Notes: generated by a model not told the origin, from the letters alone. Numbered from the stretch's first letter, positions 10,340 to 42,821 are shown. The stretch is 64,000 bases of DNA from an uncultured bacterium (GCA_963977015.1 CAXBMO010000009.1:160001-224000); one strand, 5' to 3'. Numbers and translations are program-made.

Positions 10340-10418
10340 AAAACGCGCTTCCAACCTTTATCCACGAATCACAGGTCTCTACTCACGTTTGGGTAGAGGC
10401 CTGTGTTAGTTTGGCCCC

Positions 10419-12535: not shown

Positions 12536-12622
12536 TTTCTGCATTCCGTTTTTCGCCGGCCGCGTATATCATTGAAGAATATGCCAAGTTCGCCCCGTGT
12601 GATTGGCTGTACATTATCATCG

Positions 12623-22770: not shown

Positions 22771-23442
22771 TCAACGGGTGATGACCGTCGCCCGAATCGG
22801 GGTTTTTGAGCGAGCTTTGCCATAGAGCCTTTCCATCGGAATATCCAACACCGGATACTGCTCCCACCCCACCGCATCAAAGTGCCACCATTCCGTCTTC
22901 ATGATTTTGAACCCATGGCGAACCATGACGGATTGAAGCGTCTTTCGATTCTCGAGAACGCGGCCTTTGAGTTTGAGATACTGGGCGTGGGCTTGCGGCG
23001 TAAAGACGTCGTAGCCAGTCGGCATTTCGAGCTCCCTGCCCATGGCATCGACGAGTGTCAGATCAACCGCCGCGCCTCGATTGTGTCGTGAGCCTCTGGC
23101 CGGGTTCGCCACGAATTTGGGGTTCGGCATGACCTTCCACAACTCCCGCTGGACGGCGAGAGGCCGATATCCGTCCCAGAGTTTCAACCCAAGTCCCTGG
23201 TCTTCCAGTTCAGCCTGAACATTGGCCAACCGTTCCGCGACCGGGCGAAGCAGGTAGGCCCGATGCTCCGGGTAAAATTGTCTGCCACAAAAGTTGTTGG
23301 CCGTCGCATACGGCAGTTCCACAATGATTCCGGGGATGAAGTCATTGATGCAAACCAAGTCTGCGGCCCGAGTTGCCGACGAAGACAGACTTACAATGCC
23401 AACGGTGAGCATCAGAATTCTCATGAGCGGAACCAACATCAT
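22771..23442 (-). CDS. ddpX: D-alanyl-D-alanine dipeptidase (VanX/DdpX, peptidase M15D), exported
   Basis: YATANNF, WDGYRP, SRHNRGAAVDLTL, MPTGYD, EWWHF. Confidence 0.9.
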   Translation of the reverse strand: MMLVPLMRILMLTVGIVSLSSSATRAADLVCINDFIPGIIVELPYATANNFCGRQFYPEHRAYLLRPVAERLANVQAELEDQGLGLKLWDGYRPLAVQRELWKVMPNPKFVANPARGSRHNRGAAVDLTLVDAMGRELEMPTGYDVFTPQAHAQYLKLKGRVLENRKTLQSVMVRHGFKIMKTEWWHFDAVGWEQYPVLDIPMERLYGKARSKTPIRATVITR

Positions 23443-25859
23443 TTGGGACGCATCAAGATTTTACCACTGCTTTGAAGCCGCGTCGCCATCCATCCGACCA
23501 ATTCGGCGTAAACCCAATGCTTCCCATCGACATACCGTTCACTCAGTTGCTTGACGTAGACGTAGTTGTTCACCTCAGCAATTTTGTCACTTCCCGTGTC
23601 CGTGCCTGCGCGCATGGAAAGCACCCCATCGCTTGACTGGACACTCCAGGTTCCGTTGCCGGTCGACTTCATGTAGGTGGTTTGGGTCCCCTCGGCCACC
23701 ATCCACCCTCTCACTCGAACTTCGACCCACCGATTGTTTGCGGTTCGCCCGGTTGCGACCAGAGGAACCGAAAACTGTCGAAACGCGGCGCCCAGACTGG
23801 CCGCATCGCTGTCAGCGGCCGCCCTGACCGTGACACCTTCTTTTCCCGCATAGACCACCTCATAATTGGACACGGCTGGACTTTGCTGAACCGGCGTTGG
23901 ATTCTCCGGGAAGGAAATTTCCGCGTCTTCAATGCGGGCGGAAAGGATAAACCCGGCATCATCAGTTCGGCTCGACTTGATCTCAAAGTAATTGGTTCCG
24001 GTAATGATTTTGCGAGTTGCCCCATCAGAAACGTAGTAGCGGGCCTTCAAGGAAACGGAATATCGCTCGCTCCGAATCTCGCTCACATGGGGCTCACTCA
24101 GAATTTCATGCGTCCTTTGAGTCCACCTCGAATTGTACGCGTTCAGCTTCTCGGCAATTTCATCTCGACCGAGATAACCGTAGTCAAAATAGCGCGCCCG
24201 GTTCGCAAAAAAGCGAAGCTGGTCCTGACCCGAATCACTGTCGCCGGCGCTCAAATAGGCGAGCGCATAGTTTTTGACCGCTTCGCTGTGATCTTCTTTG
24301 ACGGGTTCGGTTTTCGGCTCATCCGGAGGCGGAGTTACGGGTTTGGCGACCGACGCCAATTCGTTGGCTACGTCCATTCGAATTTTTCGAACCCGGTCGC
24401 TCAGTTTGGTCACGGACTTGGAGTGCTTCCTCATTTCGTCCGCCAATTGATTTGCTTCGGCATGAACTTCAGCCGAGGCGCCCTGGCGTTTGGAGATCGA
24501 CAACAATTCGTCCATTCGGTCCATGTTGGCTGACGCTTGATTCGTCATTCTTTCCACTTCATCAACATTGCTTCTGGCCTGGCTACGAAGTGCCGTCAGC
24601 CTGCCCCCCGAAGCGGTGCTGGTTTCCTTGTTAATGGCAATCCAATAGCCGTCTGCCCGATCCCTTTCGCTGCGAATCGTGGCAAAGGTGGTCGAAACCG
24701 ATTGTCGTAGATCCCTCATCGCCGTTGGCGAAGTGCTTCCCGGAACGAAGCCGGCGACGGGATCAACCTTTGGCGGGGGATCGGCAGCATAGGTGATGCG
24801 AGCGGTTGTGCTCTGCACGTCTCCGGGAGGATGGAAACGTTCCCAGGCCAACCATCCTCCTACTCCCAGAATGGCAATGGAGGCAAAAACGACCGCAAAC
24901 AGAAGACCACTTCTCCGATTCGGTTGACGTCCGGTGGCCAATCGTTCTGTTCGCTTTTTGAGTGCGGTTCGTCGTTTCCGGGCATTCTCGAAACATTCCC
25001 GCCATTCCCCCACAGTTTGAGGGCGATGGGTTTCTTCGAAAGATAGGGCGACATCGACGCCGTCAACGAAACCGCTCGAAAAATCCCCCAGGTCCAAGTT
25101 CTGAAAGTTCAACGGATCGACCGCTTTTGTCCGGCCGGCAGCTTCCGGAGGAGCCTTGCCAACCATCGCCCGATACATGACCGCACCCAGCGAATAAATG
25201 TCCGTCCAGGGTCCCTGATTCCCGCTCTCATGATACTGCTCGAACGGGGCATAAGCAGGTGTCAGGACAGCGGTCATCGCCCGGGTCTTTCCGCCCACCG
25301 CCAGTCTCGCACTCCCAAAATCGATCAACACCGGACTGCCATCGCGCGTGATGATGATGTTCTCCGGCTTGATGTCGCGATGCAGATAGCCATTCTCATG
25401 CACAACTTCCAATCCTTCCATGAGCTTGCTGAGAATGGTCCAGAGTTCATCCTCCGAAGGAGTCCGGTCCAATTTTTCCAACCAGTCTCCCAAACTCTCA
25501 CCGTCGAGGAAGTCCGTTACCATGTAGCCGGTGCCATTCGCCTGGAAAATTTCATGAACGCAGACAATGGACTCGTGGTCGCAGGCGGCAAGGATGCGCC
25601 CCTCCTCCATAAATCGCTGTAGCGCCCATTGAAAGGTATCAACATCAGCCTGGGTTTTCGGCGCCACCCTCACTCCATCGCGGGTGGCAAAATCAGACGG
25701 GAGCAACTCTTTGATTGCCACCTTTCTTTTGAGCTCCAGATCCTTAGCCTCGTAGGTGATGCCAAACCCTCCAAAGCCCAGAATTCGGCCCAACTTGTAA
25801 TGACTCAATTGCGTTCCCTCAGCGAGGGCCAACCGATGCGATCTAGCGGTTTGACTCAT
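23439..25859 (-). CDS. Ser/Thr kinase K1: kinase, TM, coiled coil, NTF2-like domain and two SH3b-like repeats
   Basis: GFGGFGITY, VAIKE, HRDIKPEN, DFG, YAPFEQ. TM GLLFAVVFASIAILGVGGWLAW. C-terminal repeats VTVRAAADSDA..WVEVRVRGWM and LSMRAGTDTGS..WVYAELVGWM. Confidence 0.9.
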   Translation of the reverse strand: MSQTARSHRLALAEGTQLSHYKLGRILGFGGFGITYEAKDLELKRKVAIKELLPSDFATRDGVRVAPKTQADVDTFQWALQRFMEEGRILAACDHESIVCVHEIFQANGTGYMVTDFLDGESLGDWLEKLDRTPSEDELWTILSKLMEGLEVVHENGYLHRDIKPENIIITRDGSPVLIDFGSARLAVGGKTRAMTAVLTPAYAPFEQYHESGNQGPWTDIYSLGAVMYRAMVGKAPPEAAGRTKAVDPLNFQNLDLGDFSSGFVDGVDVALSFEETHRPQTVGEWRECFENARKRRTALKKRTERLATGRQPNRRSGLLFAVVFASIAILGVGGWLAWERFHPPGDVQSTTARITYAADPPPKVDPVAGFVPGSTSPTAMRDLRQSVSTTFATIRSERDRADGYWIAINKETSTASGGRLTALRSQARSNVDEVERMTNQASANMDRMDELLSISKRQGASAEVHAEANQLADEMRKHSKSVTKLSDRVRKIRMDVANELASVAKPVTPPPDEPKTEPVKEDHSEAVKNYALAYLSAGDSDSGQDQLRFFANRARYFDYGYLGRDEIAEKLNAYNSRWTQRTHEILSEPHVSEIRSERYSVSLKARYYVSDGATRKIITGTNYFEIKSSRTDDAGFILSARIEDAEISFPENPTPVQQSPAVSNYEVVYAGKEGVTVRAAADSDAASLGAAFRQFSVPLVATGRTANNRWVEVRVRGWMVAEGTQTTYMKSTGNGTWSVQSSDGVLSMRAGTDTGSDKIAEVNNYVYVKQLSERYVDGKHWVYAELVGWMATRLQSSGKILMRPK

Positions 25860-26038
25860 GTTCTCCTGTACCTTTCTCCCCTTGACGCTCTCAATTTTTG
25901 GCCCTGAAAGTCAAGCACGAAGTCAGCCTCGCAACAGGGTCGCATTCTACGGGTCAAAAACCCAGAATTTGGTTTGACCAGGAGAACCCAACTAGGCTAG
26001 CAATAGGCCAATGATGATAAAAGGAGGGGCGAACATTC

Positions 26039-27499
26039 TTGGTTAATTCACCGCTAGCGACCAGACGCACGAACGTTGCGTTCAGAAGGTTGGGATTTCT
26101 TCTGCTTTTTATCGGGATGGTTGCTCTGGGGTGGGCACGGTTCGATTTCCGACAAATAAAGGATGGAGTGGTCCGAATTGTCGTGTTGAGTGAGGAAGCG
26201 GAAACGACGGGCAAGGGAATGATTTCGCTAGGTTCCGGATTCGTCATTTCCTCCCAAGGTCATATCGTTACAAATCAGCATATGATCGATAAACCGGGTA
26301 GGATTCTTGCGGTTCAACTTCGGGACAACAAAGTCAAAGTCTGGAGAGTCGGCGCCGTGGTGTATGAAAGCCGGGAAAAGGACTTGGCAGTCCTGCTGGT
26401 CCCCGAGCTCGGGGGCCTTCCAATCCGCCTTGCCAAGAACGATCCTTACCCTGGCGACGAAGTGATTACGATCGGATTCCCTGGCATGGCCGATGCCCAA
26501 CAGGAAAAGGATTTTTTCGTCAATGCGTTGCTGGAATCCGGGTTCCGCGACTTGCCACTGAAAGACGGTTACGTGAATTTCGTCCGGCCCTCCGTGATCC
26601 GCGGAAATGTGGAGGATGTCAGGATTCAATCAAATTGGGGACGCGACAACAATGCCCGGTGCACGATCATTCGGCATAACGCACCCACAGCCAGTGGAAA
26701 TAGCGGAGGCGCTCTGGTCAACGATTCCAACGAAATTGTCGGAGTGCATACCGCCAGCGATGCCGAGGCACGTGATGACAAAACCAAGGCCTCACAGGGC
26801 AAAAAAGTCGGCCTGGGCCTCGCCGTCAGCGAACTGATCGAAGTCCTGGAATCCGTAGGCATTCCCTACAACGAAATTCCTGCCAAGACGACCGGTGAAG
26901 TCGAACCAGGAAATTCCCGCTCGGAAACCTCCACAGCTGAAGAGGCGGCTCCCACTTGGGCCAAAGCATTGCCCTTTGTAATGATCGGTTTGGCCGTGGT
27001 ATTGGTTATTCCCGCGCTCAAGTTGCTGTTGGGAGATCGGACCTCAACAAAGACCGCACGCAGAAAGCCTCATCAACGAATCGCGGGCGAGTTCCCTTCT
27101 GCCCCGGCTTCAGAGAAGGGAGCCACGGTCGGAAACCAGAGGTCCAACCACCAATCCAACGGAAGATTACTCGGCTCGTTATCGGGCACGGACGAGCAAG
27201 GAAAACGCTACTTTTTTCAACTTTCTGCTTCCGATTTTCAGGGAAGGGGCGATAGCTTGAAAGTCGGCAGGACAGGCAATCACGTCGAGATAGCTATCCC
27301 ACATCCCAGCATTTCTCGAGTGCATGCATCCCTCCGTTATTCCCCTGACAATAATGAAATTGCACTACGTGATGAAAACTCTGCAAATGGTTGCAGAATC
27401 AACGGCAAAAAGTTGACGGCTAAGGACGGTTTTCAGCCAATCGGAGGCGGTGATTGTCTCCAGTTGGGAACTGTGAAACTGGTTTACCAGCCCGAATAA
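26039..27499 (+). CDS. Trypsin-like serine protease-TM-FHA protein T1
   Basis: Signal/anchor. Triad in GSGFVI..TNQH, KDLAVL and GNSGG. TM LPFVMIGLAVVLVIPALKLLL. FHA motifs VGR..ISRVH..SANG. Confidence 0.88.
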   Translation: MVNSPLATRRTNVAFRRLGFLLLFIGMVALGWARFDFRQIKDGVVRIVVLSEEAETTGKGMISLGSGFVISSQGHIVTNQHMIDKPGRILAVQLRDNKVKVWRVGAVVYESREKDLAVLLVPELGGLPIRLAKNDPYPGDEVITIGFPGMADAQQEKDFFVNALLESGFRDLPLKDGYVNFVRPSVIRGNVEDVRIQSNWGRDNNARCTIIRHNAPTASGNSGGALVNDSNEIVGVHTASDAEARDDKTKASQGKKVGLGLAVSELIEVLESVGIPYNEIPAKTTGEVEPGNSRSETSTAEEAAPTWAKALPFVMIGLAVVLVIPALKLLLGDRTSTKTARRKPHQRIAGEFPSAPASEKGATVGNQRSNHQSNGRLLGSLSGTDEQGKRYFFQLSASDFQGRGDSLKVGRTGNHVEIAIPHPSISRVHASLRYSPDNNEIALRDENSANGCRINGKKLTAKDGFQPIGGGDCLQLGTVKLVYQPE

Positions 27500-27518
27500 C
27501 GACTCAAGTTTTCAATAA

Positions 27519-29315
27519 ATGGCATTAGAAAACCGACAGGCACTTATTCCAGGCACCATCTTGGGCGAAAAATACGAAATTCTTTCGTTACTCGGAAGCG
27601 GGGGATTCGGAATCACCTATCTCGCCATCGACAATACGCTCAATCGCAAAGTCGCGATCAAGGAGTTGATGCCAGGCGAGTTTGCGATGCGGGATTGGGA
27701 CTCCGAGGAGATCGTCGCAAAAACGCTGTCAGAGGAAACCTCACTCCAGTGGGCCAAGGATCGCTTCATTGAGGAAGCACGGGTACTCGCCCAATTTGAT
27801 CATCCTAACATCATTCATATCCACGACTATTTCATCTCGAGAAACACCGCCTACATGGTGACTTCTTATGAAGAGGGAGCTGATCTCAATACGTTTTTAA
27901 AGGAGAAAGGGCTCTTTCATCAGGAAGACATCAACACTTACATTCTCCCGATCCTCAATGGACTGCAGCTGGTCCACGAAAGCGGATTTCTGCACCGCGA
28001 CATCAAGCCCGACAATATCTACATCAATCACAAGGGCATCCCCATTCTTCTCGACTTTGGAGCGGCCCGCCAAGCCATTGGCAACAAAACCCGGGACATG
28101 ACGGCGATCGTCACGCCCCGATTCGCGCCGTTGGAGCAATACTCCAGCGATGGGAATATGGGGCCGTGGTCAGATATCTATTCCCTCGCCGCCGTCATCC
28201 ACAAAGTCATCACTGGCGATGCCCCACCTGACGCGACGACCCGGATTCGGTCCGATACCTACGAACCGTTGGCGGAAAAGCGCATCAAGGGCTTTGATCA
28301 CGCGTTCTTGACCTGTGTTGACTGGGCCTTGGAACAGTCCGAGGAACGGCGACCGCAAACCATTGCTCAATGGGTCGACCACTTCACGGTTTCGGGAGGC
28401 GCTCCACCAATCCCCACCGATCACTTTTCAGAAACCGTGGTGGCCGGAGGCAGTCGCGCCCCGTCGAGGCCTGTGAGAAGATCCACAGAAGAAACGGTCT
28501 TGACTCAACCTCGCCCCTCTTCAGCGGTTTCCGAACCCAGGAAATCACGCACAGGTCTCATCGCCGCCTTGTTTCTGGGATCAGCACTGTTTCTCGGCTT
28601 GGGAGGATTTGTGGCGCTGCGCCAATATTCCCCCGATCTCATCGCGTTCTTCGATAGCAGCGAATCCGACAATGATTCATCCGGTCCCATTGACGACGGT
28701 ACAGGCGGAAATGACACTGGGGCTCCACCACCCAACCCAATTCCCGAGGACGACAGCAAGCCCGACGTTTCCGAGGAAGAACCGGACAAGCAAACCGAAT
28801 CCCCGATCATCCTCCCACCGACTCCTCCAAAACCGCCGGACGAGACCAAGCCTCCGGTAGAATCAGTTTCACTCGATGAGTTGGTCGACTACGTGACCGC
28901 TGTGGACCGCCGACTGTGGGATGCCTGGTATGCGGACCGAATCATTCGAGCGTCGATCCAACCGCAGATGAACCTTCGTGATCCGGATATGAGCGAAGCG
29001 GAATTTCGGGCCAACCAGACCAAACTCCAGGAAGCCTTCACCGCCCGAAACAATCAGGTCATCCAGTACTGCGAGGACGTTCGCCTCGACGTCGCGAAGC
29101 TGATGAAATACGAAGAGTCGCAAGTGGATCAGGCCTTTGCCGCCAGACTCAGCCAAATCCAGCAAACCGGAGTTGAGCGCAAGGTTAATACGGAAGTTCA
29201 ACAGAAACTTCTTGGAATCGCAAAGTCCATTTATAAGGATGAAAAGGCGGGTTTGATCGTGAACGCAAACGCCATCAGGGAACGAATCAAAGGCCTTTCT
29301 GCATTGCAGAAATAA
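27519..29315 (+). CDS. Ser/Thr kinase K2: kinase, TM, Pro/acidic linker and helical extracytoplasmic domain
   Basis: GSGGFGITY, VAIKE, HRDIKPDN, DFG, FAPLEQ. TM LIAALFLGSALFLGLGGFVAL. Confidence 0.92.
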   Translation: MALENRQALIPGTILGEKYEILSLLGSGGFGITYLAIDNTLNRKVAIKELMPGEFAMRDWDSEEIVAKTLSEETSLQWAKDRFIEEARVLAQFDHPNIIHIHDYFISRNTAYMVTSYEEGADLNTFLKEKGLFHQEDINTYILPILNGLQLVHESGFLHRDIKPDNIYINHKGIPILLDFGAARQAIGNKTRDMTAIVTPRFAPLEQYSSDGNMGPWSDIYSLAAVIHKVITGDAPPDATTRIRSDTYEPLAEKRIKGFDHAFLTCVDWALEQSEERRPQTIAQWVDHFTVSGGAPPIPTDHFSETVVAGGSRAPSRPVRRSTEETVLTQPRPSSAVSEPRKSRTGLIAALFLGSALFLGLGGFVALRQYSPDLIAFFDSSESDNDSSGPIDDGTGGNDTGAPPPNPIPEDDSKPDVSEEEPDKQTESPIILPPTPPKPPDETKPPVESVSLDELVDYVTAVDRRLWDAWYADRIIRASIQPQMNLRDPDMSEAEFRANQTKLQEAFTARNNQVIQYCEDVRLDVAKLMKYEESQVDQAFAARLSQIQQTGVERKVNTEVQQKLLGIAKSIYKDEKAGLIVNANAIRERIKGLSALQK

Positions 29316-29370
29316 TGGACGACTTTTCTCAACAACTCTCCAACCAACAAAACACACACACAAAAACACA

Positions 29371-30006
29371 ATGAAAATACGAATTGTAGCCCTGGCTCTG
29401 ATTCCCGCACTGTTCCTATCCAGTTGCCAAACGACGAACATCGCAGAGACCCCGGATGAACTGAAAACGATGCGCCAAGCCAAAATCACATGGGCTGGAG
29501 CCGGAGCGATTTCAGGAGCAGCCGTGGGTGCAGGCATCGCGGCATTGAGTGGCGGAAGCTCGACGGCGATTCGTAATGCCGCAATTGGGGGCGGTATTGC
29601 AGGACTGGTGGCAGGACATCAAGTTGGAACACAGAAAGGCACGCAAACGGTAGAGAAAAAGCGGAGCTACACGGCAACCGAAGATTACCTGGCTGGCCAA
29701 ATCAGCAATGCGCAGAAGTTCAACTCCGCCTTGGTTTCCTATAACAGCAAGTTGAGGGGCCAAATCGCCTCTGCTAAGTCAAGTCCCGACGGTGCTGCGA
29801 TTCGCGGTCAGATCAAAACCGCAAACGCCGTGCTGAAAGAGGTTGACTCGGAAATGACCACACGGACCAAGCTTTTGGAAAATGCGGAAAGTGGTCCATC
29901 CAAAAACACGCTTACCCAGAAGAAGAACAGCCTGGCTCAACAAAAGAAGCAGCTGGAAAACAGCATTGCTGAGCTCGAGGAATTGGAGAAAATCTCCAAG
30001 GTATAA
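29371..30006 (+). CDS. Glycine-zipper/coiled-coil lipoprotein
   Basis: Lipobox LFLSSC, GAGAISGAAVGAG..RNAAIGGGIAGLVAG, C-terminal heptads. Confidence 0.85.
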   Translation: MKIRIVALALIPALFLSSCQTTNIAETPDELKTMRQAKITWAGAGAISGAAVGAGIAALSGGSSTAIRNAAIGGGIAGLVAGHQVGTQKGTQTVEKKRSYTATEDYLAGQISNAQKFNSALVSYNSKLRGQIASAKSSPDGAAIRGQIKTANAVLKEVDSEMTTRTKLLENAESGPSKNTLTQKKNSLAQQKKQLENSIAELEELEKISKV

Positions 30007-30039
30007 CCTTCGAGGAGTAGGACGACAACGAACCACCCT

Positions 30040-30426
30040 ATGAATTGGATTTATCATACTCTAAGAGTTACAGGCATCGCTGGTGTGTTGATCTTCGGCA
30101 CCGCATGTGAGACAACCGGCGATCCAAGAGCAGGCGGCTACTGGAACTGGAGCGAGACCAAGGCAATTCAACGCCAGGACGATCTCCGCGGCACCCTTGG
30201 TTCGCTCAACAGGGAGAACAGCCGTTTGCAAAGTGAACAGGCCAGCCTCAAAGCCCAATTGCGGAGCAAACAGTCGCAATTGAGTTCCTTGCAGCAGCAG
30301 AAAAAACGCGCTCAGCAGGAGTCAAAACCGGATCTCGTGGCCGCAACCACCAAAGAAATCAACCAACTCCAAGGTGATATCTCCTCGTTGGAAGCGGATC
30401 TTCGCCGGATTGAAAGCCGCATGTAG
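30040..30426 (+). CDS. Small coiled-coil lipoprotein
   Basis: Lipobox FGTAC, TTGDPRAGGYWNWSE, then a Q/L-rich coiled coil. Confidence 0.8.
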   Translation: MNWIYHTLRVTGIAGVLIFGTACETTGDPRAGGYWNWSETKAIQRQDDLRGTLGSLNRENSRLQSEQASLKAQLRSKQSQLSSLQQQKKRAQQESKPDLVAATTKEINQLQGDISSLEADLRRIESRM

Positions 30427-30569
30427 TCATGGAGTAGCGATCACGAATATCTTCCCCGCCTTCTCTCGCCACGCCAGAGAAGGCGGGGTTCTTGGTGGCA
30501 GGCTTGGGAAATAACATGATAACTTTTCACAAAACACCGTGGAGGCGAACGCTACTACCGGGCTGATTG

Positions 30570-31850
30570 ATGAGTTGGTTAGGCACAGATTATAGTCACA
30601 TTGGCACAAGGGACGAACAACAGGACGCCCTCGTTGTTCTCAGCAATGAAACCAAGGACCAAGTCTTTGCCGTGCTGGCCGATGGCGCAGGCGGTCACAG
30701 TGGGGGGAGATTGGCATCGGAAGCGATCGTCGCCGTCGCGACCAAACGGTGGGAAACCGCCGCTGGAGAAATACCCGACCCCGAAACGTTTTTACTCGAC
30801 TTTTTTGCCCACGCCCAAGCCCGAATTACGGCGACCGGAAAAAAGGCAGGCATCGAACCGCGGGCAACCGTCGTGGCAGTCTATGCCAACGGGAAAAGAG
30901 CAGTTTGGGGGCACTCGGGAGATTCTCGACTCTACCTGTTTCGGAAAGGTCAATTGGTCAAGCGAACCAAAGATCATTCCGTGGTGCAGATCCTCGTCGA
31001 TCAGGGAAAGGTTCGTGAAGAGGAAATGGGAACTCACCCCGACCAAGGTCGACTGCTTCAGTCGCTGGGAGGTTCCGACTATCAAGTACCAGATATTGGG
31101 AGCGCAAATATTCAGGGTGATGAAGTGATTGTTCTCTGTTCTGACGGCTTCTGGGAACACCTGCCAAAAGAAGCCATTGCCCAACTCTCCGTTCCCGGAA
31201 AATTAAAGCCTCCCAAACTGATTAAGAAGCTCGCTCACGCGGCCGTCAGTCGAGCCGGCCAGAAAGCCGACAATACAAGTGCGCTGGCGATCTACAACAT
31301 TGCCGCCAATCGGCCGGCCTTTTTCATGGGAGGAATCCATTGGGCTGCAGTTGCCTTGTTCTGCCTGTTGGCGGGAATGGTGACCTATCTTGTAATGTAT
31401 CTGATCAAGCCTGACAGCTCTCCAGGCAACCAACCTCCCGATGCTCCAGTCCAAAACGTTGCATCCCAAGTGGTTTCCGGCGGCCCCAAAACTTCTCCAG
31501 CTGATCAAGCCCCCATTCCGAACGAAAGCGAAGATATCCGCGAGGCTGGTGAAAATCCCCTTCCAAAGGCACTGGATCCAACAACAGGAAAGCCAAAAGT
31601 AAGGATTATCCCCAATATTATCCAGCCGGCTCCAGATGCCCCCACAGCTATCGTGGAGCCTGCCTCCCCAGTTGAAGAGGTGCCTGTCGAACCCACGCCC
31701 CCGCCCACCTCTCCTACAGATCAGCCAACGACGCCAGAGAACACCGGCGAGGTTCCTCCCATGTCGCCGGACTCACCACCGGCAGACGAGGAAAAGGGCA
31801 TTATTCGCAAAGGATTCGAAAAGTTAAATCCGATTAAGAGAGACAAATGA
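30570..31850 (+). CDS. PP2C/PPM phosphatase with TM and Pro-rich extracytoplasmic tail
   Basis: [54 protein letters not shown]. Confidence 0.9.
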
Positions 31851-33271
31851 AGCGCCTTCACCTACTCATCGCCCTGCTACTGGCCGCTCTTCAATCCAGT
31901 TCACTGGGATGGGATGCGAAAACTGCCGAAGACGTCGTGGTGCGAGTCGCGATTTTCACGAGTAGCGGAAAATATTCCGGTCACGGATCAGGCTTCGTCG
32001 TCAGTCGGGACGGACATGTCGTCACCAACAATCATGTGGTTCGAGGTGCCGGAACTCTATTGGTCATTCGCAAGGAATCGCCCCAGGAAATGGGGGTCTA
32101 CAAAGCTGAGGTGCTGTTCAACGACTCAGGTCTCGACATGGCCATCATCAAGGCGAAGGGAATGAAAGGAGGACCCATTTCAACCCTGGCAACGGAAGTC
32201 CCGCCCAAGGGGGATCGAGTTTATGCCGCAGGGTTTCCCGGACAGAATGATGATATTAAGGATTTGATCGCGCTGCTCAACAAGATCATGAGCGCCGATG
32301 AGTTTCCCATACACCGTAAAATCGATAGCACGACGGAAGATGCGCTCGACGTGTCCATTAAGCCGGGATTCATCGAACAAGTATCAACCAGTTCCTGGCT
32401 CAGGGCATCGACCGGAAGTGGCGGCGGAGTCGAATTGGAAATCATCAAGCACAGTGCCTCGATCGTTCACGGGAATAGCGGTGGCCCCCTTTTTGATGAG
32501 AAAACCCGGGTCATTGGCATCAACACCGCGGGAAACGCCGACGAAAAAACCTACAACAATCTCCGGCTCTCTGGAAGAATCACGGAACTCATTGATGCCC
32601 GTGCATTCAAGGATCACGACATTCACCCAATCATCAGCGGCAACACCGTCACCGCATTGAGTTTGGCTGACCCCAAAATTCTACTCCTCATTGTGCTGGT
32701 TATGGCCCTGTGTGGCATGGGCACGCTGCTTGTCGTCCATAAACAGCGTGCGGCAGCCGGCGCCAGAGGGCCCGTCCTGGTTCGAGGTGATGGCCGAACT
32801 CCCCATGCGCCCAGCCAGAACGATCAAGCCCTCACCTTGGGAACTGGGGGAGAAGTGTTGGGCCGGAGGTCTCCTGACACCAAAATCGCCGGATCAGGCG
32901 GCAATCGCCGGGGCATGCCGCCCGCGCAAAGCAATGGGCGCAACCGCTGGGTCCTGGAAGGAAATGGCCCCGACGGGAGGCACCACCGCCTTGAATTGGA
33001 TAATCGGAGATTGTCCCAATCCACCAGCGGATTAAAAATTGGTCGCAAACGCGAATCCGCAGACATTGAGCTCGACGACAGTAGCGTCTCGAGACCTCAC
33101 GCTCGAGTTTTCCTGCGCAAAACCAGCCTTTATCTGGAAGATTTGGGATCGTCAAACGGTAGCTTTGTCAATGGTGAGCGCCTTGGTGGTAAAATCCAGG
33201 CAATCAAGCTGAAAGAGAATTCTGAAGTCAAACTTGGAGAAGTCAGGTTGAGGTTTCTGCCTTTACGATAA
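31847..33271 (+). CDS. Trypsin-like serine protease-TM-FHA protein T2
   Basis: Signal peptide. Triad in TNNH, LDMAII and [31 protein letters not shown] motifs IGR..VSRPH..SSNGS. ATGA overlap with the PP2C gene. Confidence 0.9.
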
Positions 33272-33279
33272 TTTGTCTG

Positions 33280-34542
33280 ATGGGAGCCGACCTTTCATTG
33301 CCCCTCAAATCCCAAATTGGAGCCTACAGTGTTCAACGTGTTTTGGGGCAGGGAGGTTACGCCATTACCTACGCCGCAAGGGCGAAAAATGGAGAACTTG
33401 TTGCGATCAAGGAATTGTTTCCTGAGCAGTTCTCACGACGTAGCCCGGACAACTGGGTTTCGCCTAAACCCGGCGATCAGGAAGATTTTGAATATATTAA
33501 AGAACGCTTTGTTCGAGAGGCGAGAATGGTTTGCGGGTTCAATCACCCCAATCTGCTCAAAGGGCTGGATTGGTTCGAACAGAATGGGACTGCCTACATC
33601 GTTATGCGATATGAATCAGGCCTCCCTCTCCATCAGCATCTTCGCAATAAATCGAGCAACTTTAAGGTTACTCCCGGAAGCATCGCCAGGCTCTTTCAGG
33701 GTCTGCTCGTCGCGTTAAAAGTCGCCCACGACCAGCATTGCGTCCACTGCGACATCAAACCAGGAAACATCTATCTTGGCGAAAATTTTCTCCCGGTGTT
33801 GTTGGATTTTGGTGCAGCCCGCCACGCCGTCAACGAACGGCTTTATCAAGCCCACGAATCACTGGTCCCATTCACGGAATACTACGCCCCAATTGAACAG
33901 TATCCGGAGCATTCCGGGGAGATTGGCCCCTGGACCGATATCTATCAGCTTGCGGCCGTGATCTATCGCTGTCTGACTGGCGGCAAAATCCCGTCAGCCA
34001 TCGATCGGGTCGTGAAAGGAGCACCGGATCCCTATTACCCGCTGAGCCAACTCGTCATCAAAGGAAAGGGCTATCCAGTAGAGTTTCTCGAAGCGGTTGA
34101 TTGGGCGCTCGCGATCCAACCTCGAGACCGCCCTCAATCGATTTCGGAATGGCGCCGACGTTTGGATCGCCCGATGAAGCGAATGGCGCGGGAAGCCAAG
34201 AAGACTGTGCGAATTGATGCGCGCGATCGCCCCATTGTCGAAACGGTTGAAAATACTGAACTGCCACCAGAAACGCTCGAAACCCTGACCGTTGTCTCCA
34301 AAGGCGCCAAGTCAGGGTATGAACGCCGGAAAACCCAAAACGTTCCCGACGACTATGATATAGACCAAAGTCTTGGCAAAAGATCCTCCGACGGGCGAAC
34401 GCCAGTCGCCTTTCGAGTCATTATATGGTGCTTGGTACTCGCCATCGTGGTCCTCATTTTCCTGATGGTGGCAGAAAATTTCGGCTGGAACCTGCGTTTT
34501 CTGGCTGACTATTGGGATGAAATCCGCGACTCGGCCAACTGA
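33280..34542 (+). CDS. Ser/Thr kinase K3 (non-RD, HCD) with C-terminal TM and essentially no ectodomain
   Basis: GQGGYAITY, VAIKE, HCDIKPGN, DFG, YAPIEQ. TM VIIWCLVLAIVVLIFLMVA. Confidence 0.9.
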   Translation: MGADLSLPLKSQIGAYSVQRVLGQGGYAITYAARAKNGELVAIKELFPEQFSRRSPDNWVSPKPGDQEDFEYIKERFVREARMVCGFNHPNLLKGLDWFEQNGTAYIVMRYESGLPLHQHLRNKSSNFKVTPGSIARLFQGLLVALKVAHDQHCVHCDIKPGNIYLGENFLPVLLDFGAARHAVNERLYQAHESLVPFTEYYAPIEQYPEHSGEIGPWTDIYQLAAVIYRCLTGGKIPSAIDRVVKGAPDPYYPLSQLVIKGKGYPVEFLEAVDWALAIQPRDRPQSISEWRRRLDRPMKRMAREAKKTVRIDARDRPIVETVENTELPPETLETLTVVSKGAKSGYERRKTQNVPDDYDIDQSLGKRSSDGRTPVAFRVIIWCLVLAIVVLIFLMVAENFGWNLRFLADYWDEIRDSAN

Positions 34543-34563
34543 TAAACCTCTCAATACCGTAGA

Positions 34564-36978
34564 CTAACTGGGTCGCAAATTTGGGATACGGATCCCATTG
34601 CGAAGAAAACCCAACTCCGTCAACTTCATCTTGCGTAGACGAAAGTAGGTCGCAAACAGCGCTCCGCCAAAATAGGGAAAAAAGAGAAAAAGGCTGAGAG
34701 CAATTCGGCTTTTTCGATAGTTATCAACACTTCCATCAACGTCGTCGATTTTCTCTTCAGAAAAATTGCCGAGCGGAGCCTTTGCATCCGGATCCCGGCT
34801 TGTTGGCGGGCCAATATATCCCTCGTAATTGAGCGCCTCCAAGTGAGAAATCGCTTCAAAAGCCCAACGTGACGGCATCACTTCCATAATCGATTTCGTC
34901 ATCACACCGGCTCGATCGTATTGCGCCAACAACCCTCCAAAAAAGATAAACGGAATCAGAATAATCGGAATAAGGACAATGGCCGTTACTTCCGTCTTCG
35001 ACCACGCACTTACCAACAGTCCCAACCCGACTCCGATCATTGAGGCAAGCCAACACACTGCAAGTCCTGCAACAGGATTGATCGTCAGATCCAGAAAATG
35101 AACGGTGAGAAACACCAAAATTGCACACTGCACCAACCCAATCACGCCCAGGACGGAAATTTTCGACATCAAATACGCCAACGGTGATTGCCCAAAGCGA
35201 GCCTCCCGATTGAAGATATTTACCTCGCCGACCAACTCTCGCGCTGAATTGTTGGTACCAAACCAGATTGCGACAAAGGTCAGAAGAAAAAGTGGAGGAT
35301 TGACTGCTTTGTCACGAAAGGCCAATGCCAGAAAAATCGCCACCAAGGGAGCCTGAATCAGAAGTATGAGGAGAGATGACCGGTCGCGCAGTTTGCATTG
35401 AACGTAGCGTTTGGTCAGTTGGAAATATTGCGTAACTGCGGAGGCTCGTTCCGACGGAGCCCGGTTCTTGGGCTTATCTTGCGGAGTTCGGCTGAGAAGA
35501 GCAAACCGTTGTCCCACGTTTTTCTCATAGTGAGATGAACCACGGTAACGGTGAGCCATGTCCTCCTCAGGAAGATCATCAATATTTTCCATGATCCCAT
35601 CAGGACCGGCTGCATCATGGTGTTGATTCGGCACAAAATATTGGATCGAATCTGGGTAGGCGGTTCCGAAATAGCAAAGGTGCCCAGCTTTGAGATAGAT
35701 CGTCTTATCCAGAAGCTTGTAAACTCGAGTCGAAGGCTGATGAATGGTGATAATGATGGCGATACCTTTGGAATCGGCAAGCTTCCGAAGAATTTCCATC
35801 ACCACCCTGGTGTCTTTCGAGGAAAGGCCGGAGGTTGGCTCATCAAGAAACAAAACCCGCGGGTCGGTCAGCAACTCGATCGCGAGATTTACCCGCTTCT
35901 TTTGGCCACCGGAGAGCGTTTTCTTTTCGGGCGAGCCGACCAATTCATCCCTTAGGTCCAGTTTACCATTCGGATCCCACAATCCCAGATCCTCGCACAA
36001 TTGATCTATCTTCTCGTGAATTGCCTCACTCGAAGTCGAAGCTGGCAACCGAAGCTTGGCATTGTAAAAAAGCACCTCCCGGACGGTCAGCTCCGCATGC
36101 ATAATATCGTCCTGAGGTACATACCCAATTTGGGACTCAAACCTTCGACGGTTGCTCAGCATGTCGATACCATTGTAGAGCACATCACCCGTGAATCCCG
36201 GCACGCTTCCACTCAGCGCATTCAAGAGTGTCGTCTTTCCACAACCCGATGGCCCAAGAAGGCCAACAAACTCACCAGGAAAAACACAAAGGTCGATACC
36301 TTGAAGAATCTTTTTCGGCTGACCAGTCCTTCGATCAGTAACTTCAAAAGTCAGCTGATCAACCTGGACGTAGATCCCCTCCCTCTCGGTCCCCACGACA
36401 ATATTTTCGGGGTTCGCCGGATCAAAATTCAACGAAATGGATACCCCACCCAACTCCAACAGGTCACTGGGGTTGATCTGGATCTTGCCGTCCGCGTAGG
36501 CCACCCCATTAATATATACAGGTGCACCTTTGGGACGAATATAGCGGACGCCTCCGCGAGTAATATTGAGCTCCGCATGATTTGGGTGGACGCTCAAATA
36601 CGGAAGTATCACCTCGTTGTTCCTCCCTGAACCAAACCGGATTTTTGCGGCATTGAACTTCTGGACGGATCCTCCCGCCCCGGATGTCAACGCCTGTCCT
36701 CCCGAATGCTCCCATTCCTCAAATCGCTTTAACAGCAAATTGCCAGGCAGACGGTAATTCTCGGAAAAATAGAAGATGTCGTCCGGGCGAACCTCCACCA
36801 ATCCATCTCGCACCTCAGAATTGAGCGAATTGAGGAACGTCCCATTGGAGCTGCCCGCATCTTCAAGATAAACCATGCCATCCCGACGGCGCATCCGTGC
36901 ATGAGTCGAGGAAACGTAGGCGTTGTTCAGCACCATATCGTTATTCGAACTTCGCCCCAGTTGAAACATCTCTGCCAT
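34564..36978 (-). CDS. FHA-FHA-ABC ATPase-ABC2 permease fusion (Rv1747-like exporter)
   Basis: FHA1 LGR..VSSTH..SSNGT and a degenerate FHA2. GPSGCGKT, LSGGQ, LFLDEPT, TIHQP, multiple C-terminal TMs. Confidence 0.92.
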   Translation of the reverse strand: MAEMFQLGRSSNNDMVLNNAYVSSTHARMRRRDGMVYLEDAGSSNGTFLNSLNSEVRDGLVEVRPDDIFYFSENYRLPGNLLLKRFEEWEHSGGQALTSGAGGSVQKFNAAKIRFGSGRNNEVILPYLSVHPNHAELNITRGGVRYIRPKGAPVYINGVAYADGKIQINPSDLLELGGVSISLNFDPANPENIVVGTEREGIYVQVDQLTFEVTDRRTGQPKKILQGIDLCVFPGEFVGLLGPSGCGKTTLLNALSGSVPGFTGDVLYNGIDMLSNRRRFESQIGYVPQDDIMHAELTVREVLFYNAKLRLPASTSSEAIHEKIDQLCEDLGLWDPNGKLDLRDELVGSPEKKTLSGGQKKRVNLAIELLTDPRVLFLDEPTSGLSSKDTRVVMEILRKLADSKGIAIIITIHQPSTRVYKLLDKTIYLKAGHLCYFGTAYPDSIQYFVPNQHHDAAGPDGIMENIDDLPEEDMAHRYRGSSHYEKNVGQRFALLSRTPQDKPKNRAPSERASAVTQYFQLTKRYVQCKLRDRSSLLILLIQAPLVAIFLALAFRDKAVNPPLFLLTFVAIWFGTNNSARELVGEVNIFNREARFGQSPLAYLMSKISVLGVIGLVQCAILVFLTVHFLDLTINPVAGLAVCWLASMIGVGLGLLVSAWSKTEVTAIVLIPIILIPFIFFGGLLAQYDRAGVMTKSIMEVMPSRWAFEAISHLEALNYEGYIGPPTSRDPDAKAPLGNFSEEKIDDVDGSVDNYRKSRIALSLFLFFPYFGGALFATYFRLRKMKLTELGFLRNGIRIPNLRPS

Positions 36979-37053: not shown

Positions 37054-37833
37054 TCATACAACCCGAAAGACAACGACGGTTATATTGTCCTGCCGGTCTT
37101 TCCGGCGCGATTCCACTGTCTGGATCAGTTGCTTACAGACAACGGATGCATCCGATGCTTCATGAATCTCAATCGTTGCCCGCAGTTTCTCCAAAGGAAG
37201 CGTATCCAAGCCATCGGTAGCCACAATGATCATGTCACCTTTCTCCACTTCTACCGGAGGTTTGCCCTGATCAAGAGCGCCTTCCGTCAACGGCTCACCA
37301 ATGATCGCTGATCGGAGGACATTTCGATCCGGGTGATTCTCAGCATCCTCAGCCGTCATTTCACCCCGCTCAACCTGGGCTGCCAAAATTGGCGCCATCG
37401 AATGGTCATCGTTGAGCCTTTTGAATTGCTTGGAAGCTCTGCTGAAATGATAGAGGGTGGAATCTCCGATGCTCGTCCAACGCAGCATGTTGTCCCTCAA
37501 GAATGCCGCAACCAGCGTGGTGCCCATGCCCGAGTAGGTTTGGGGCTCTTCTTCGCACAACTTGCGAATCGCCTCGTTGGCACCTCGCAAGCCCTTTGAT
37601 AGTCTCACCGTATCGACGTCGAGCGACTCAGAAAATTCGCGAAGGAAATTTTCCGTTGCCACTCGACTTGCAATATCTCCGGCCGCATGTCCGCCCATCC
37701 CATCCGCGACGACGACGAGTAGGTCTCCGCCCCGAACTCCGAGCGCATCTTCAATTGCAACCTGATAGTAGTCTTCCTGATAGGGACGATCACCTTGAGA
37801 TTGCCTTCCAGCAATATCCCGTTCAGGCTCCAT
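37054..37833 (-). CDS. Soluble PP2C/PPM phosphatase
   Basis: GDRPYQED, ADGMGGH, GMGTT, IGDS, DHS, ATDGL, QDNIT. Confidence 0.93.
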   Translation of the reverse strand: MEPERDIAGRQSQGDRPYQEDYYQVAIEDALGVRGGDLLVVVADGMGGHAAGDIASRVATENFLREFSESLDVDTVRLSKGLRGANEAIRKLCEEEPQTYSGMGTTLVAAFLRDNMLRWTSIGDSTLYHFSRASKQFKRLNDDHSMAPILAAQVERGEMTAEDAENHPDRNVLRSAIIGEPLTEGALDQGKPPVEVEKGDMIIVATDGLDTLPLEKLRATIEIHEASDASVVCKQLIQTVESRRKDRQDNITVVVFRVV

Positions 37834-38519
37834 TAGACGAGGGTATTGTCACTCCAGTCAAATTGTTCGCCACACAGAGGAACAAACTTGAGGGTGGTCC
37901 CTCCAATTCGAATCAATTCTCCGCCAGCAAGCTCAACAGGAGTCAAAACCGGGCTTTGCTCGGCGCCCAGGTAGGTGAGGTTGCTGCCTTGGGTGTTCGG
38001 TTGAACGAAATATTTTCGACTGCGCGGATCATAGGTAATAATCGCGTGGGCACTTCGCGAAACTTCCTGATCACCAAACGGCAACGGAACGCGGTTGTCA
38101 GGATTACGACCGATTTGATTCATGCCATAACCCAAAGTCAAGGCGCTGCCACGGCCTGGTCCCGCAACAATGACAACCCAGCCAACAACCGGGTCTTCGA
38201 TTTCACCGGGAGCTTGGGGATTGCCCTGTGCAACGCCGCCTGCAGGAGCAATTCCTGGTGCGGGCTCGATACCACCTGCCGCCACAGGCCTAACCAAACG
38301 CGTCTTGTCGCTGTCAGCTCCAGAATTCGATCCCGGCCCACCCTGCGAAGCAGGCTGATTGATCACTGAGGTGTTGTCATCCTGGATGCCTGAGCGCTCA
38401 ACAATTCGGGTTGCTTCCGGATCATCGCTACTGGTTCTCCTGATCTCCTGGCTCTGTTCTTGATAGTCCGCATCGCTTGGGCGTCTACGAATAATTCGAG
38501 TCGTGTCATCGTTGCTCAT
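37833..38519 (-). CDS. FHA protein with disordered N-terminal tail bearing repeated Thr motifs (GarA/OdhI-like architecture)
   Basis: FHA motifs IGR..VSRSAH..GSN. Tail motifs DDTTRII, EATRIV, DNTSVI, DKTRLV. TAATG overlap with the PP2C gene. Confidence 0.88.
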   Translation of the reverse strand: MSNDDTTRIIRRRPSDADYQEQSQEIRRTSSDDPEATRIVERSGIQDDNTSVINQPASQGGPGSNSGADSDKTRLVRPVAAGGIEPAPGIAPAGGVAQGNPQAPGEIEDPVVGWVVIVAGPGRGSALTLGYGMNQIGRNPDNRVPLPFGDQEVSRSAHAIITYDPRSRKYFVQPNTQGSNLTYLGAEQSPVLTPVELAGGELIRIGGTTLKFVPLCGEQFDWSDNTLV

Positions 38520-38544: not shown

Positions 38545-39375
38545 CTAGCGGGCTTTTTTTTCAAGAAGTCGGTTAATCAAATTATCAAACGTGTATTGGC
38601 CGGCACGGTTGAGCGAACGCTCCTCTCCGCCTTGCACGAAGTTCATCACCAACATCAGGACTCCGCTCATGACCAGGGCAACCAAGGTGGTATAAAAAGC
38701 AACGCCCAATCGCGCCGTGGTCGGTCCCAGAAGATTATCCGGATCGATCCCGTCTCTGCCCGCAAAAGCCAACGCATCTGCAATCCCAATCACAGTTCCA
38801 ATAAATCCCATGGTGGGGATTACCCAAACCACGTAACGAATGAGGTTATAGCGCAAATCCAGTTCGTGAAGGCAGAGTTCCAGGTTGGAATTCAGCAAGT
38901 TGTTGGCTTGATCAACGGAATCCGATTTCCGGAATTGGATGATGGTTCTCCGAATCAATTTGGGGAGAAAATAGCTTTGATTCGCTTTGTTGACCCGTTT
39001 GTAGATTGGAGTGAGGTCCTCGTGAGTGAGAATCGTTTGTTCGTCTTCCGGCAAAAATTCCAGACTCAGTTGATGCTTTTCTTTCGAAGCGGCCCGATGC
39101 CGCAACCACAATTCACCAAGCCCCAAACAAAGGGCAATCCACATGAAGGCCTGAACTGAAAAATATCCGTATTCCTCTTTTCCATCCTCAACGCGGCGGT
39201 TGATGAGGATCTGGGAAAAATCCACCTTCGTGTATTCACCGCTCGCATCCTCGCCTTTTATCTGAATCGGAGGAATCATATTCAAGGTTACGATGATCGC
39301 CACCCCGACCAAGAAGGCAATGAGCCCCACAACCAAGCGCTGCGCATCAAAAACGCTGTCTGACTGATCATTCAT
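38545..39375 (-). CDS. MotA/TolQ/ExbB proton channel family protein
   Basis: IPTMGFIGTVIGI and LGVAFYTTLVAL helices plus two N-terminal TMs. Confidence 0.88.
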   Translation of the reverse strand: MNDQSDSVFDAQRLVVGLIAFLVGVAIIVTLNMIPPIQIKGEDASGEYTKVDFSQILINRRVEDGKEEYGYFSVQAFMWIALCLGLGELWLRHRAASKEKHQLSLEFLPEDEQTILTHEDLTPIYKRVNKANQSYFLPKLIRRTIIQFRKSDSVDQANNLLNSNLELCLHELDLRYNLIRYVVWVIPTMGFIGTVIGIADALAFAGRDGIDPDNLLGPTTARLGVAFYTTLVALVMSGVLMLVMNFVQGGEERSLNRAGQYTFDNLINRLLEKKAR

Positions 39376-39791
39376 CGCCGAATAATTTCTCCCGTTTCTG
39401 GATCCAGGTATGCACCACCACCCTGCCGTGGAGCAGGTGAAGGCTGGGCCGGAGGTTCCGGTTCAGGCGGTGCGGCAGGCGGATCTTCCGGTGAGTGCAA
39501 CGGAGGAGCAATCAGGTCAAGCAGATCCCCCACAGACGTCTGGTACTGCTGCCCGAGGCGCAACGGAGTATCTCGCCTGACATTCCCCTGATTGATTGGC
39601 ACCCAATCCCCATTCTCCCAAATTTCCGTTCCGTTCTGGCCACTGATGTCCACGACCAGAAAATCTCTTCCCCCTGTATCCGTAATCTCCAAATGCTGTC
39701 GACTCACAGCATCCTGATCCTCCGGCACGCTAATGTCGCAGGGTTTCGTATGGTTCTTTCGACCAACAATGTAGACCTTACGGTTTGCCAT
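39372..39791 (-). CDS. Small FHA protein with Pro-rich tail
   Basis: VGR..VSRQH..QNGT. Tail ends YLDPETGEIIRR. ATGA overlap with the MotA-like gene. Confidence 0.82.
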   Translation of the reverse strand: MANRKVYIVGRKNHTKPCDISVPEDQDAVSRQHLEITDTGGRDFLVVDISGQNGTEIWENGDWVPINQGNVRRDTPLRLGQQYQTSVGDLLDLIAPPLHSPEDPPAAPPEPEPPAQPSPAPRQGGGAYLDPETGEIIRR

Positions 39792-39808
39792 ACTTCCTCA
39801 TTCTTTTA

Positions 39809-41269: not shown

Positions 41270-41476
41270 AGCATGATTAAACTGGGCAGCCCTTCTGGTT
41301 GGGATTTCGAACGATCATAACCTTTTGTCAGGAAGGACCCCAACGTTAACACAGCTAAAATCGGCTTGTTGAAATCCAAACTCCGGTGAGCCGAACCTTG
41401 GTAAATGTTGGTAACGAATGGCTGTATTCCGGTCAAGTCCAATTCGATTTGTTTTTCCCGCATCTGAACCCGGCAT

Positions 41477-42463: not shown

Positions 42464-42821
42464 GTCCTGCCATTTTGCATAAGTTCGATCTGGGAAAAAC
42501 TGTTCTAATCGATCAGATCGTCAACCTCAAGTATCAATCTGACAAGGCCCCGCCAAAAGCCTTCGCCCAATACCGGAATCACACTTTTTTCGCATTCGGA
42601 GCAAACAGTTCCGACCGGAATTCGAAATGCATCCAGTCGAAGTGATCCCAAGGAAGGTAAAAGCGTAACTTCGCATTTCCCGACATCGAAAGTTCAACGG
42701 AAGCGGGCGGTAGGAGGCTCCAATTCGATTGCCTCGTAAGATTAGGCTTGCCGACGAAAGCGCTCACGGTTTAAAAACGATCGTAGGCTATATTGATAAT
42801 CAAACGGCAGGATTCCAAGTG

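Follow-up and report, generated by a model that had tools for sequence, protein, structure and literature searches.

We analysed a stretch of 64,000 nucleotides (nt) of an uncultured bacterium (GCA_963977015.1, CAXBMO010000009.1:160001-224000), here called the window, which contains two genes, T1 and T2, for predicted membrane proteins that join a trypsin-like protease to an FHA domain. As an earlier note on this DNA had claimed, open reading frames (ORFs) are present at 26039-27499 (T1) and 31847-33271 (T2), both on the + strand, and each product has a signal or anchor sequence, an intact catalytic triad, a single transmembrane (TM) segment and an intact C-terminal FHA domain. T1 starts with a TTG codon, located 9-10 nt 3' of AGGAGG, and its N-terminus has an RR-rich n-region, then LGFLLLFIGMVALGW. 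This signal/anchor is followed by an HtrA-like protease domain (amino acids (aa) 65-248, nt 26231-26782), the TM segment (aa 313-331, nt 26975-27031), a disordered linker and the FHA domain (about aa 378-486, nt 27170-27496). T2 consists of a signal peptide (aa 1 to about 20), the protease domain (aa 24-264, nt 31916-32638), the TM helix (aa 276-305, nt 32672-32761), a disordered linker (aa 306-363) and the FHA domain (aa 364-474, nt 32936-33268).

Using Pfam, T1 matched Trypsin_2 at E = 7.3e-20 (aa 65-236) and FHA at 3.8e-11 (aa 408-476), and T2 matched Trypsin_2 at 3.2e-24 (aa 47-225) and FHA at 4.4e-18 (aa 397-464), with the FHA scores of both proteins above cut-off. No PDZ family was found in either protein by Pfam at E <= 0.01. 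T1 has the catalytic triad H81/D115/S222, and T2 has H63/D97/S211. The residues of the FHA phosphothreonine site are all intact (R411/S426/H429/N450 in T1 and R400/S415/H418/N437 in T2), and both linkers contain Thr residues. When compared by BLASTP the two proteins aligned over their full length with 25% identity (E = 5e-32), in agreement with the paralogy proposed for them. The nearest NCBIfam models were those of DegS, DegP, HtrA and MarP, which gave 50-74 bits against cut-offs of 250-423. The degP_htrA_DO model (cut-off 416) scored 55.7 bits with T1 and 70.1 bits with T2, and the DegS model (cut-off 423) scored 56.9 and 51.5 bits, respectively. Because these scores are far under the cut-offs, T1 and T2 are not members of those curated families. 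Judging from their sequences, they belong to a conserved family of membrane proteases with a single pass, within which they diverged long ago.

A kinase gene lies directly 3' of each protease gene, as had also been claimed: K2 (27519-29315, + strand) begins 19 nt after T1 and K3 (33280-34542, + strand) begins 8 nt after T2. K2 is a Hanks Ser/Thr kinase (aa 19-279) with HRD and DFG, a TM segment at aa 347-365 and an outside region of about 233 aa, in which a Pro-rich stretch precedes a helical region. K3 is a Hanks kinase in which HCD replaces HRD (non-RD). It has 22 aa past its TM segment (aa 380-398) and therefore no outside sensor domain. The seven genes T1, K2, LP1, LP2, PP2C-TM, T2 and K3 are co-directional, with gaps of 19, 55, 33, 140, -4 and 8 nt. 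PP2C-TM (30567-31850, + strand) encodes a phosphatase (aa 1-245) with a TM segment (aa 262-280) and a Pro-rich tail outside; it matched Stp1_PP2C at 1.2e-41, under cut-off. Its gene overlaps the start of T2 by 4 nt, and the 4-nt and 8-nt junctions of PP2C-TM, T2 and K3 point to co-expression. In a promoter and terminator scan of 25700-34800, sites were no commoner than in shuffled sequence.

We built an AlphaFold2 model of T2 from a 66-row alignment of the family, with a mean pLDDT (predicted local distance difference test) of 84.4. The N-terminal helix (aa 2-17) corresponds to the signal peptide, and the protease (aa 24-264) was modelled confidently. The helix at aa 276-305 corresponds to the TM segment, for which the hydrophobic segment in the sequence covers aa 278-296. 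The linker (aa 306-363) is disordered, with pLDDT below 50, and is followed by a confident FHA sandwich (aa 364-474), for which the block means of pLDDT lie at 86-98 from aa 371 onward. The earlier note had described a shared pre-FHA segment as a separate element. This does not hold, as in the T2 model strands 367-373 and 379-385 open the FHA beta-sandwich; they seemed to lie outside the domain because the 67-position Pfam FHA model omits them. Using Foldseek, the closest folds to the T2 model were DegS, MucD, HtrA1 and DegP, with E about 1e-13 and TM-score by target up to 0.81, and HtrA/Deg proteins were also the closest solved sequences in a sequence search of PDB.

Of the 66 family members, 65 have a hydrophobic segment that lies C-terminal of the catalytic Ser and N-terminal of the FHA Arg. 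In these 65 members the 15 residues flanking the TM segment contained on average 1.4 Lys plus Arg before it and 4.0 after it, and 58 of them had more after than before. The topology that had been claimed, protease out and FHA in, fits the signal peptide, the single TM helix and the positive-inside rule. The prediction that a Sec signal places the protease outside the cytoplasmic membrane, with the FHA domain in the cytoplasm, is thus supported.

When T2 was searched against its own genome, no further match spanned both the protease and the FHA domain. That genome has 15 FHA matches, of which seven are in the window. A trypsin-like ORF of 519 aa without FHA (8780-10339, + strand) was matched by both the protease hidden Markov model (HMM) and the T2 search; it is probably an ordinary HtrA-type gene.

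The family extends well past this genome. Among the best 120 T2 matches (query included), 36 had both Trypsin_2 and FHA, and almost none was named. Two of these relatives, P0039 and P0049, have trypsin, PDZ and FHA together. The proposal that FHA replaces the PDZ control of HtrA was thus too strong, since the three domains coexist in these proteins. In the ESM Atlas at least eight clusters of 54-165 members had Trypsin, Trypsin_2 and FHA in 98-100% of members, and in two more listed clusters the share of members was 90% for FHA or just 51% for Trypsin_2. The commonest phyla were Verrucomicrobiota (nearest cluster), Pseudomonadota, Bacillota and Acidobacteriota. The protease-TM-FHA family is widespread, in at least four phyla, which the earlier note had not mentioned. 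Its distribution among species representatives is patchy: it was found in two of 41 close-relative genomes (G000, which carries the window, and G001 of the same genus) and in three of 401 sampled genomes of the same phylum.

G001 retains T1-K2-LP1-LP2 and PP2C-T2-K3 with 44-69% identity. The K2 orthologue (52% identity) adjoins the T1 orthologue, the K3 orthologue (66%) adjoins the T2 orthologue, and the LP2 orthologue has 53% identity. The pairing of protease and kinase is stable within the genus, and because both pairs are kept in G001 the T1/T2 duplication predates the G000/G001 split. For co-phylogeny we used a kinase tree of 18 rows and a protease tree of 24 rows. Both trees resolved just the G000/G001 orthologue pairs, with full support, and left deeper nodes open, including K2-K3 and T1-T2; duplication of the protease-kinase pair as a block is neither supported nor rejected by them. 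In the protease tree T2 groups with a G001 protein in which the protease is fused to an FGE-sulfatase domain. This third T2-type copy of G001 lies at 6596-10677 of locus L009 (G001:C11), and the FGE-sulfatase domain stands where the TM helix and FHA would be. Genes for an AAA ATPase and a CoxE-like vWA protein lie 5' of this fusion gene.

We next give the gene context of the family as a census of 77 protease-TM-FHA ORFs (T ORFs) in 53 loci. Our own HMMs, built from these loci, were run over all ORFs and partly checked by Pfam. The loci were drawn with a narrower subgroup alignment (A3), to which the sample is biased, and they include close relatives, so the census fractions describe the sample and not the whole family. 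A kinase was present within 5 kb in 25/53 loci, a PP2C in 26/53, and either of the two in 35/53. A kinase within 150 nt, that is directly adjacent, was found in 11/53 loci, and 14/53 contained two or more T ORFs, so that arrays of two to four tandem copies are common in the sample. PP2C is linked about as often as kinase, a point absent from the earlier note. The 18 loci without kinase or PP2C comprise nine of a clade with degenerate FHA, seven with short flanks (650 nt or less upstream), L131, whose PP2C ORF was dropped by the overlap filter, and L172.

The usual cassette consists of genes for a vWA-FHA protein, a small FHA protein, a PP2C, the protease-FHA protein, another membrane FHA protein and a kinase. 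In metagenome loci L157-L163 the order is vWA-FHA, FHA, PP2C, T, DUF805-FHA or RDD-FHA, and kinase. G393, of the same taxonomic order as the window's genome, has FHA, FHA, PP2C, T, FHA and kinase; G090, of the same class, has an FHA protein, two PP2Cs, T, a kinase-Sel1 protein and a glycine-zipper protein. An alphaproteobacterial metagenome-assembled genome has vWA-FHA, FHA, PP2C, vWA, PP2C and T. Kinase and FHA genes are divergent from T in L147 and L164. L125-L133 have a single PP2C gene and, 3' of it, two to four T genes in tandem, and their flanks contain no kinase. At L127 6877-13977 (L128 and L131 are alike) the T genes after the PP2C gene number four, with all triads and FHA pockets intact and about 8 kb of flank free of kinase genes.

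Some loci stood apart from these cassettes. At L171 3133-7859 the T gene directly follows a gene with an eCIS-core domain and a gene whose 1208-aa product contains an AHH nuclease domain. A scan of genome contigs kept 80 loci, among which L043 alone spans both domains and L042 is cut by the contig end; the remaining loci are ordinary HtrA-type genes. Candidate trypsin-kinase fusions in L176, L182, L183 and L189, suggested by our own kinase HMM, were rejected, as Pfam confirmed the trypsin domain only (E <= 1e-5).

The catalytic residues and the FHA pocket are both strongly conserved in the census. The triad is His-Asp-Ser in 71/77 T ORFs, the remainder being three fragments and three degenerate copies. 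In two of the degenerate copies Ser is replaced by Tyr (L141 6840-8321 and L147 3113-4558), and the other has KNL (L187 2818-4464). The first two are each the first of a tandem pair and that of L187 is a third copy; live copies adjoin them, and all three retain the FHA pocket. Such dead-protease tandem copies may be regulatory subunits.

The FHA Arg and Ser are intact in 68/77 T ORFs. The nine ORFs without one or both of them keep the triad and form a single clade (FastTree support 100), found in L142, L143, L145, L146, L149, L151, L153, L154 and L168, with Arg changed to Cys, Ser or His and Ser changed to Ala or Asp. No kinase, PP2C, FHA or vWA gene lies within 5 kb of these nine ORFs, three of which have short flanks. 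Around them lie unrelated genes, for AMP-binding acyltransferase, P-type ATPase, BON and Usp. This clade lost the FHA pocket and the phospho-signalling context together, as functional coupling would predict, and this gives modest support for a functional coupling of the FHA pocket to the neighbouring phospho-signalling genes.

The remaining genes around T1 and T2 belong to a larger signalling island, on which the earlier note was silent. Besides T1 and T2 it has vWA-FHA, FHA, PP2C, kinase and TolQ-like genes. We scanned 25 ORFs of the island and its flanks (14014-53401 of the window; 18 are flanking ORFs) with Pfam. Upstream, K1 (23439-25859, - strand) is a Hanks kinase gene divergent from T1, whose product has a TM segment at aa 319-337 and about 470 aa outside. 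LP1 (29371-30006, + strand) encodes a lipoprotein with the lipobox LSSC, a glycine-zipper region and a coiled-coil tail, with a weak YiaD glycine-zipper match under cut-off. LP2 (30040-30426, + strand) encodes a small coiled-coil lipoprotein with the lipobox GTAC. Glycine-zipper (lipo)protein genes just 3' of protease or protease-kinase genes recur in three lineages (LP1; L041 13558-14127; L147 5945-6742), and the glycine-zipper protein is a candidate partner or substrate of the protease.

Convergent on K3 is a gene for an ABCG-type half transporter with two N-terminal FHA domains (34564-36978, - strand). Its FHA-FHA-ABC layout is that of Mycobacterium tuberculosis Rv1747, which is paired with PknF. 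A similar gene (10835-13333) adjoins a pair of T genes in metagenome locus L141. The next genes on the - strand were assigned by Pfam to a soluble PP2C phosphatase (37054-37833), a small FHA protein of 228 aa (37833-38519), a MotA/ExbB/TolQ-like proton-channel protein (38545-39375) and a small FHA protein of 139 aa (39372-39791). A vWA-FHA gene (39809-41269, - strand) follows; its product has a signal at aa 8-26, vWA outside, a TM segment at aa 339-357 and FHA inside. This predicted topology matches the layout of T1 and T2, which are one kind among several proteins of the island with an outside domain, a TM segment and an FHA domain. The adjoining vWA protein (41477-42463, - strand) has an N-terminal TM helix with Asp, of the ExbD/TolR-like trans-pore helix type; no TolR/ExbD family was found among the 25 ORFs scanned. 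K4 (42729-44561, + strand) is a divergent kinase with no hydrophobic segment. Beyond it, at 44592-53401 (+ strand), lie a gene for an nSTAND1 NTPase of 1778 aa and an overlapping ORF of 1218 aa without Pfam match, a possible conflict-system element beside the signalling island. Among the flanking ORFs, Pfam found no MoxR gene beside T1 or T2 and reported no type VI secretion system (T6SS) family in the 18; the VI_FHA (TagH) model scored 30.1 bits against a cut-off of 120.25.

Like DegS and other HtrA proteases of family S1C (E. coli DegS, P. aeruginosa MucD, human HtrA1), T1 and T2 have the chymotrypsin fold and the His-Asp-Ser triad, and like DegS they are predicted to be membrane-anchored with the protease outside the cytoplasm. 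HtrA proteases have the trimer as their basic unit and are regulated by one or two PDZ domains at the C-terminus. Unlike HtrA, T1 and T2 have no PDZ; a TM segment, disordered linker and FHA domain follow the protease instead. DegS is anchored by its N-terminus and has no cytoplasmic part, whereas in T1 and T2 the anchor lies C-terminal of the protease and leads on to an FHA domain in the cytoplasm. A further parallel is M. tuberculosis Rv1747, an FHA-FHA-ABC transporter with a disordered Thr-bearing linker, encoded next to the Hanks kinase PknF; phosphorylation-dependent binding by its FHA domains probably clusters or activates this effector. T1 and T2 would likewise be membrane effectors with a cytoplasmic FHA domain, a disordered Thr-bearing linker and an adjacent Hanks kinase. 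They differ in that the effector is an outside protease and not a transporter, with one FHA domain, C-terminal. In the T6SS pathway the membrane Hanks kinase PpkA, the PP2C PppA and Fha1-TagH control the assembly of an envelope machine. The island has the same three kinds of component and differs in that no T6SS family was found among the scanned ORFs.

Related sets of genes have been described. The actinobacterial Esr pathway has an FHA output protein, variable in architecture, that is the target of a kinase/phosphatase pair; according to the sections covered, the pathway includes MoxR and a beta-propeller sensor, is confined to Actinomycetes and senses epibionts (PMC13622651). Esr and Deinococcus DRA0331-0334 share with the island a vWA protein, a Hanks kinase, a PP2C and FHA proteins, and no protease-TM-FHA output is reported in the portions of the two sources covered (PMC13622651; bioRxiv 10.64898/2026.01.23.701218). 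Motors of a TolQ-like protein and vWA proteins with a trans-pore helix are described, in the text available, as occurring mainly in Proteobacteria and Verrucomicrobia (PMC12204202; Mol Biol Evol 2025). As far as that text defines the class, 38545-42463 has its make-up, with a TolQ-like protein, no TolR/ExbD among the ORFs scanned and a heterologous vWA pair with one Asp-bearing TM helix, and T1 and T2 themselves lie outside the motor described. The terms FHA domain, kinase, PP2C, trypsin and protease are absent from that text, where the sole word beginning with FHA is FhaC. A Bacteroides thetaiotaomicron protein, NP_811686.1, was listed by Tripathi & Sowdhamini in 2008 as an FHA-FHA-Trypsin architecture, with neither function nor context given in the entry (PMC2605481); it has the reversed order, with two FHA domains, N-terminal. 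Beyond this catalogue entry our searches, which did not cover subscription journals, found no literature on a trypsin-, protease- or peptidase-FHA architecture. The family and its cassette thus appear to be conserved and, as far as the literature searches reach, undescribed in function. The kind of system, an FHA-tethered membrane effector under kinase/PP2C control, would be one already known, of which the protease version seems to be new.

We consider it about an even chance that phosphothreonine marks, set by the kinases and PP2Cs and read by the FHA domain, steer the outside protease from within. K2 and K3 would phosphorylate Thr on themselves, on the linkers of T1 and T2 or on other proteins of the island, and the PP2Cs would remove those phosphates. 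The FHA domain would read the phosphothreonines and dock or cluster the protease with the kinase complex. The phosphorylation state of the cytoplasm would then set the place and time of proteolysis outside it. This is close to the inside-out activation proposed in the earlier note, a mechanism that is plausible and partly supported; Rv1747 with PknF and the Esr pathway (PMC13622651) are precedents for it. More tentatively, and with somewhat less than even confidence, we propose that T1 and T2 are inside-out switches in which cytoplasmic Thr phosphorylation, written by K2 and K3 and erased by the PP2Cs, gates periplasmic proteolysis, and that they form one output arm of a phospho-regulated envelope machine including the TolQ-like/vWA motor and the FHA-ABC transporter. 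Both proposals start from the anatomy, topology signals, family membership, linkage and residue conservation observed here; what we infer is that FHA binds an island phosphoprotein, and which way the signal runs.

Several observations weigh against such control from the cytoplasm. Kinase adjacency is not universal among the family loci. In L172, where the flanks are complete and the FHA is intact, there is no partner gene within 5 kb, and the large clade with a PP2C and two to four tandem T genes has no kinase in flanks of up to 8 kb (L125, L127, L128). Many census loci are closely related, so the counts overstate independence, and the co-loss of the FHA pocket and its context is one evolutionary event. 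K3, being non-RD, need not autophosphorylate its activation loop. Dead proteases with a live FHA domain indicate that FHA function can persist without catalysis, and the relatives with trypsin, PDZ and FHA make FHA no simple PDZ substitute.

The signal may run the other way, which we regard as possible though clearly on the unlikely side. The protease domain would then be a sensor or co-receptor that binds or cleaves a periplasmic ligand, and the FHA domain, by docking on the neighbouring kinase or being phosphorylated by it, would pass the signal inward, which would count above all for K3. DegS, a stress sensor among the closest folds, senses unfolded porin tails. K3, with 22 residues past its TM segment, has to rely on a partner for sensing, and the T2 gene ends 8 nt before it. 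The like layout of the vWA-FHA protein fits alternative sensors that feed one kinase/phosphatase pair, and the dead-protease copies with an FHA site fit binding, not cutting, for some copies. However, the triad kept in 71/77 T ORFs places catalysis under selection, and K2 has its own 233-residue outside region and is still paired with T1. FHA domains are, to our knowledge, known as phosphothreonine readers and not as kinase activators. The clade without an FHA pocket kept its protease as well, which indicates that the protease is useful without the signalling link.

It is quite improbable that the island is a conflict or defence module, in which vWA/STAND-like components would sense a threat and the proteases would be its outputs, directed at an invader or at the envelope of the cell itself. 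The gene of an nSTAND1 NTPase is found 11 kb further downstream, the L171 relative stands beside eCIS-core and AHH-nuclease genes, and the T2 protease is closest to the G001 FGE-sulfatase fusion behind AAA and vWA genes. The patchy distribution, 3/401 sampled genomes of the phylum, would also suit such a role, as would the recurrence of vWA, kinase, PP2C and FHA in the conflict systems of Kaur et al. 2020 (PMC7159879) and in Esr (PMC13622651), so far as these sources were covered. But nSTAND1 is not kept next to T in the other loci examined, and no MoxR lies beside T1 or T2. PADLOC gave generic domain-level matches and no system: with PADLOC-DB v2 these were to kinase domains (PD-T4-6, mad6), protease domains (RT-Protease_XI, LmuA), one PP2C and an ABC ATPase, and the vWA, FHA, MotA-like and nSTAND1 proteins had no match. 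The passages of PMC7159879 on FHA, PP2C and trypsin-like domains contain no trypsin-TM-FHA protein, and no protein with trypsin and FHA appears in the part of the Esr supplementary table covered (PMC13622651).

Least likely of all is an ordinary envelope quality-control protease whose FHA domain merely anchors it to a membrane machine, for example the TolQ-like/vWA complex or the FHA-ABC transporter, with the kinases incidental: the HtrA type of the protease, the TolQ-like gene, two vWA genes and FHA-ABC transporter of the island and the T pair beside the FHA-FHA-ABC gene of L141 would suit it, but a kinase and/or PP2C lies within 5 kb in 35/53 loci from distant lineages, the FHA residues are conserved where the context is kept and lost just where it is lost, and the PP2C-T2-K3 junctions point to co-expression.

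Steering of the outside protease by phosphothreonine marks would, if true, have wider consequences. Control of HtrA-type periplasmic proteases is known to come from the outside, where their PDZ domains detect unfolded proteins. Gating through FHA would be a general way for bacteria to govern proteolysis beyond the cytoplasm from within it, with neither PDZ nor regulated intramembrane proteolysis. The family also offers natural controls, namely copies with a dead protease and a live FHA domain, a clade in which the protease is live and the FHA domain dead, and arrays of up to four copies. It would provide a concrete link between Ser/Thr signalling and envelope proteolysis, and it suggests that envelope proteolysis may be steered by phosphorylation in the cytoplasm, or that the protease may serve as a sensor for the kinase.

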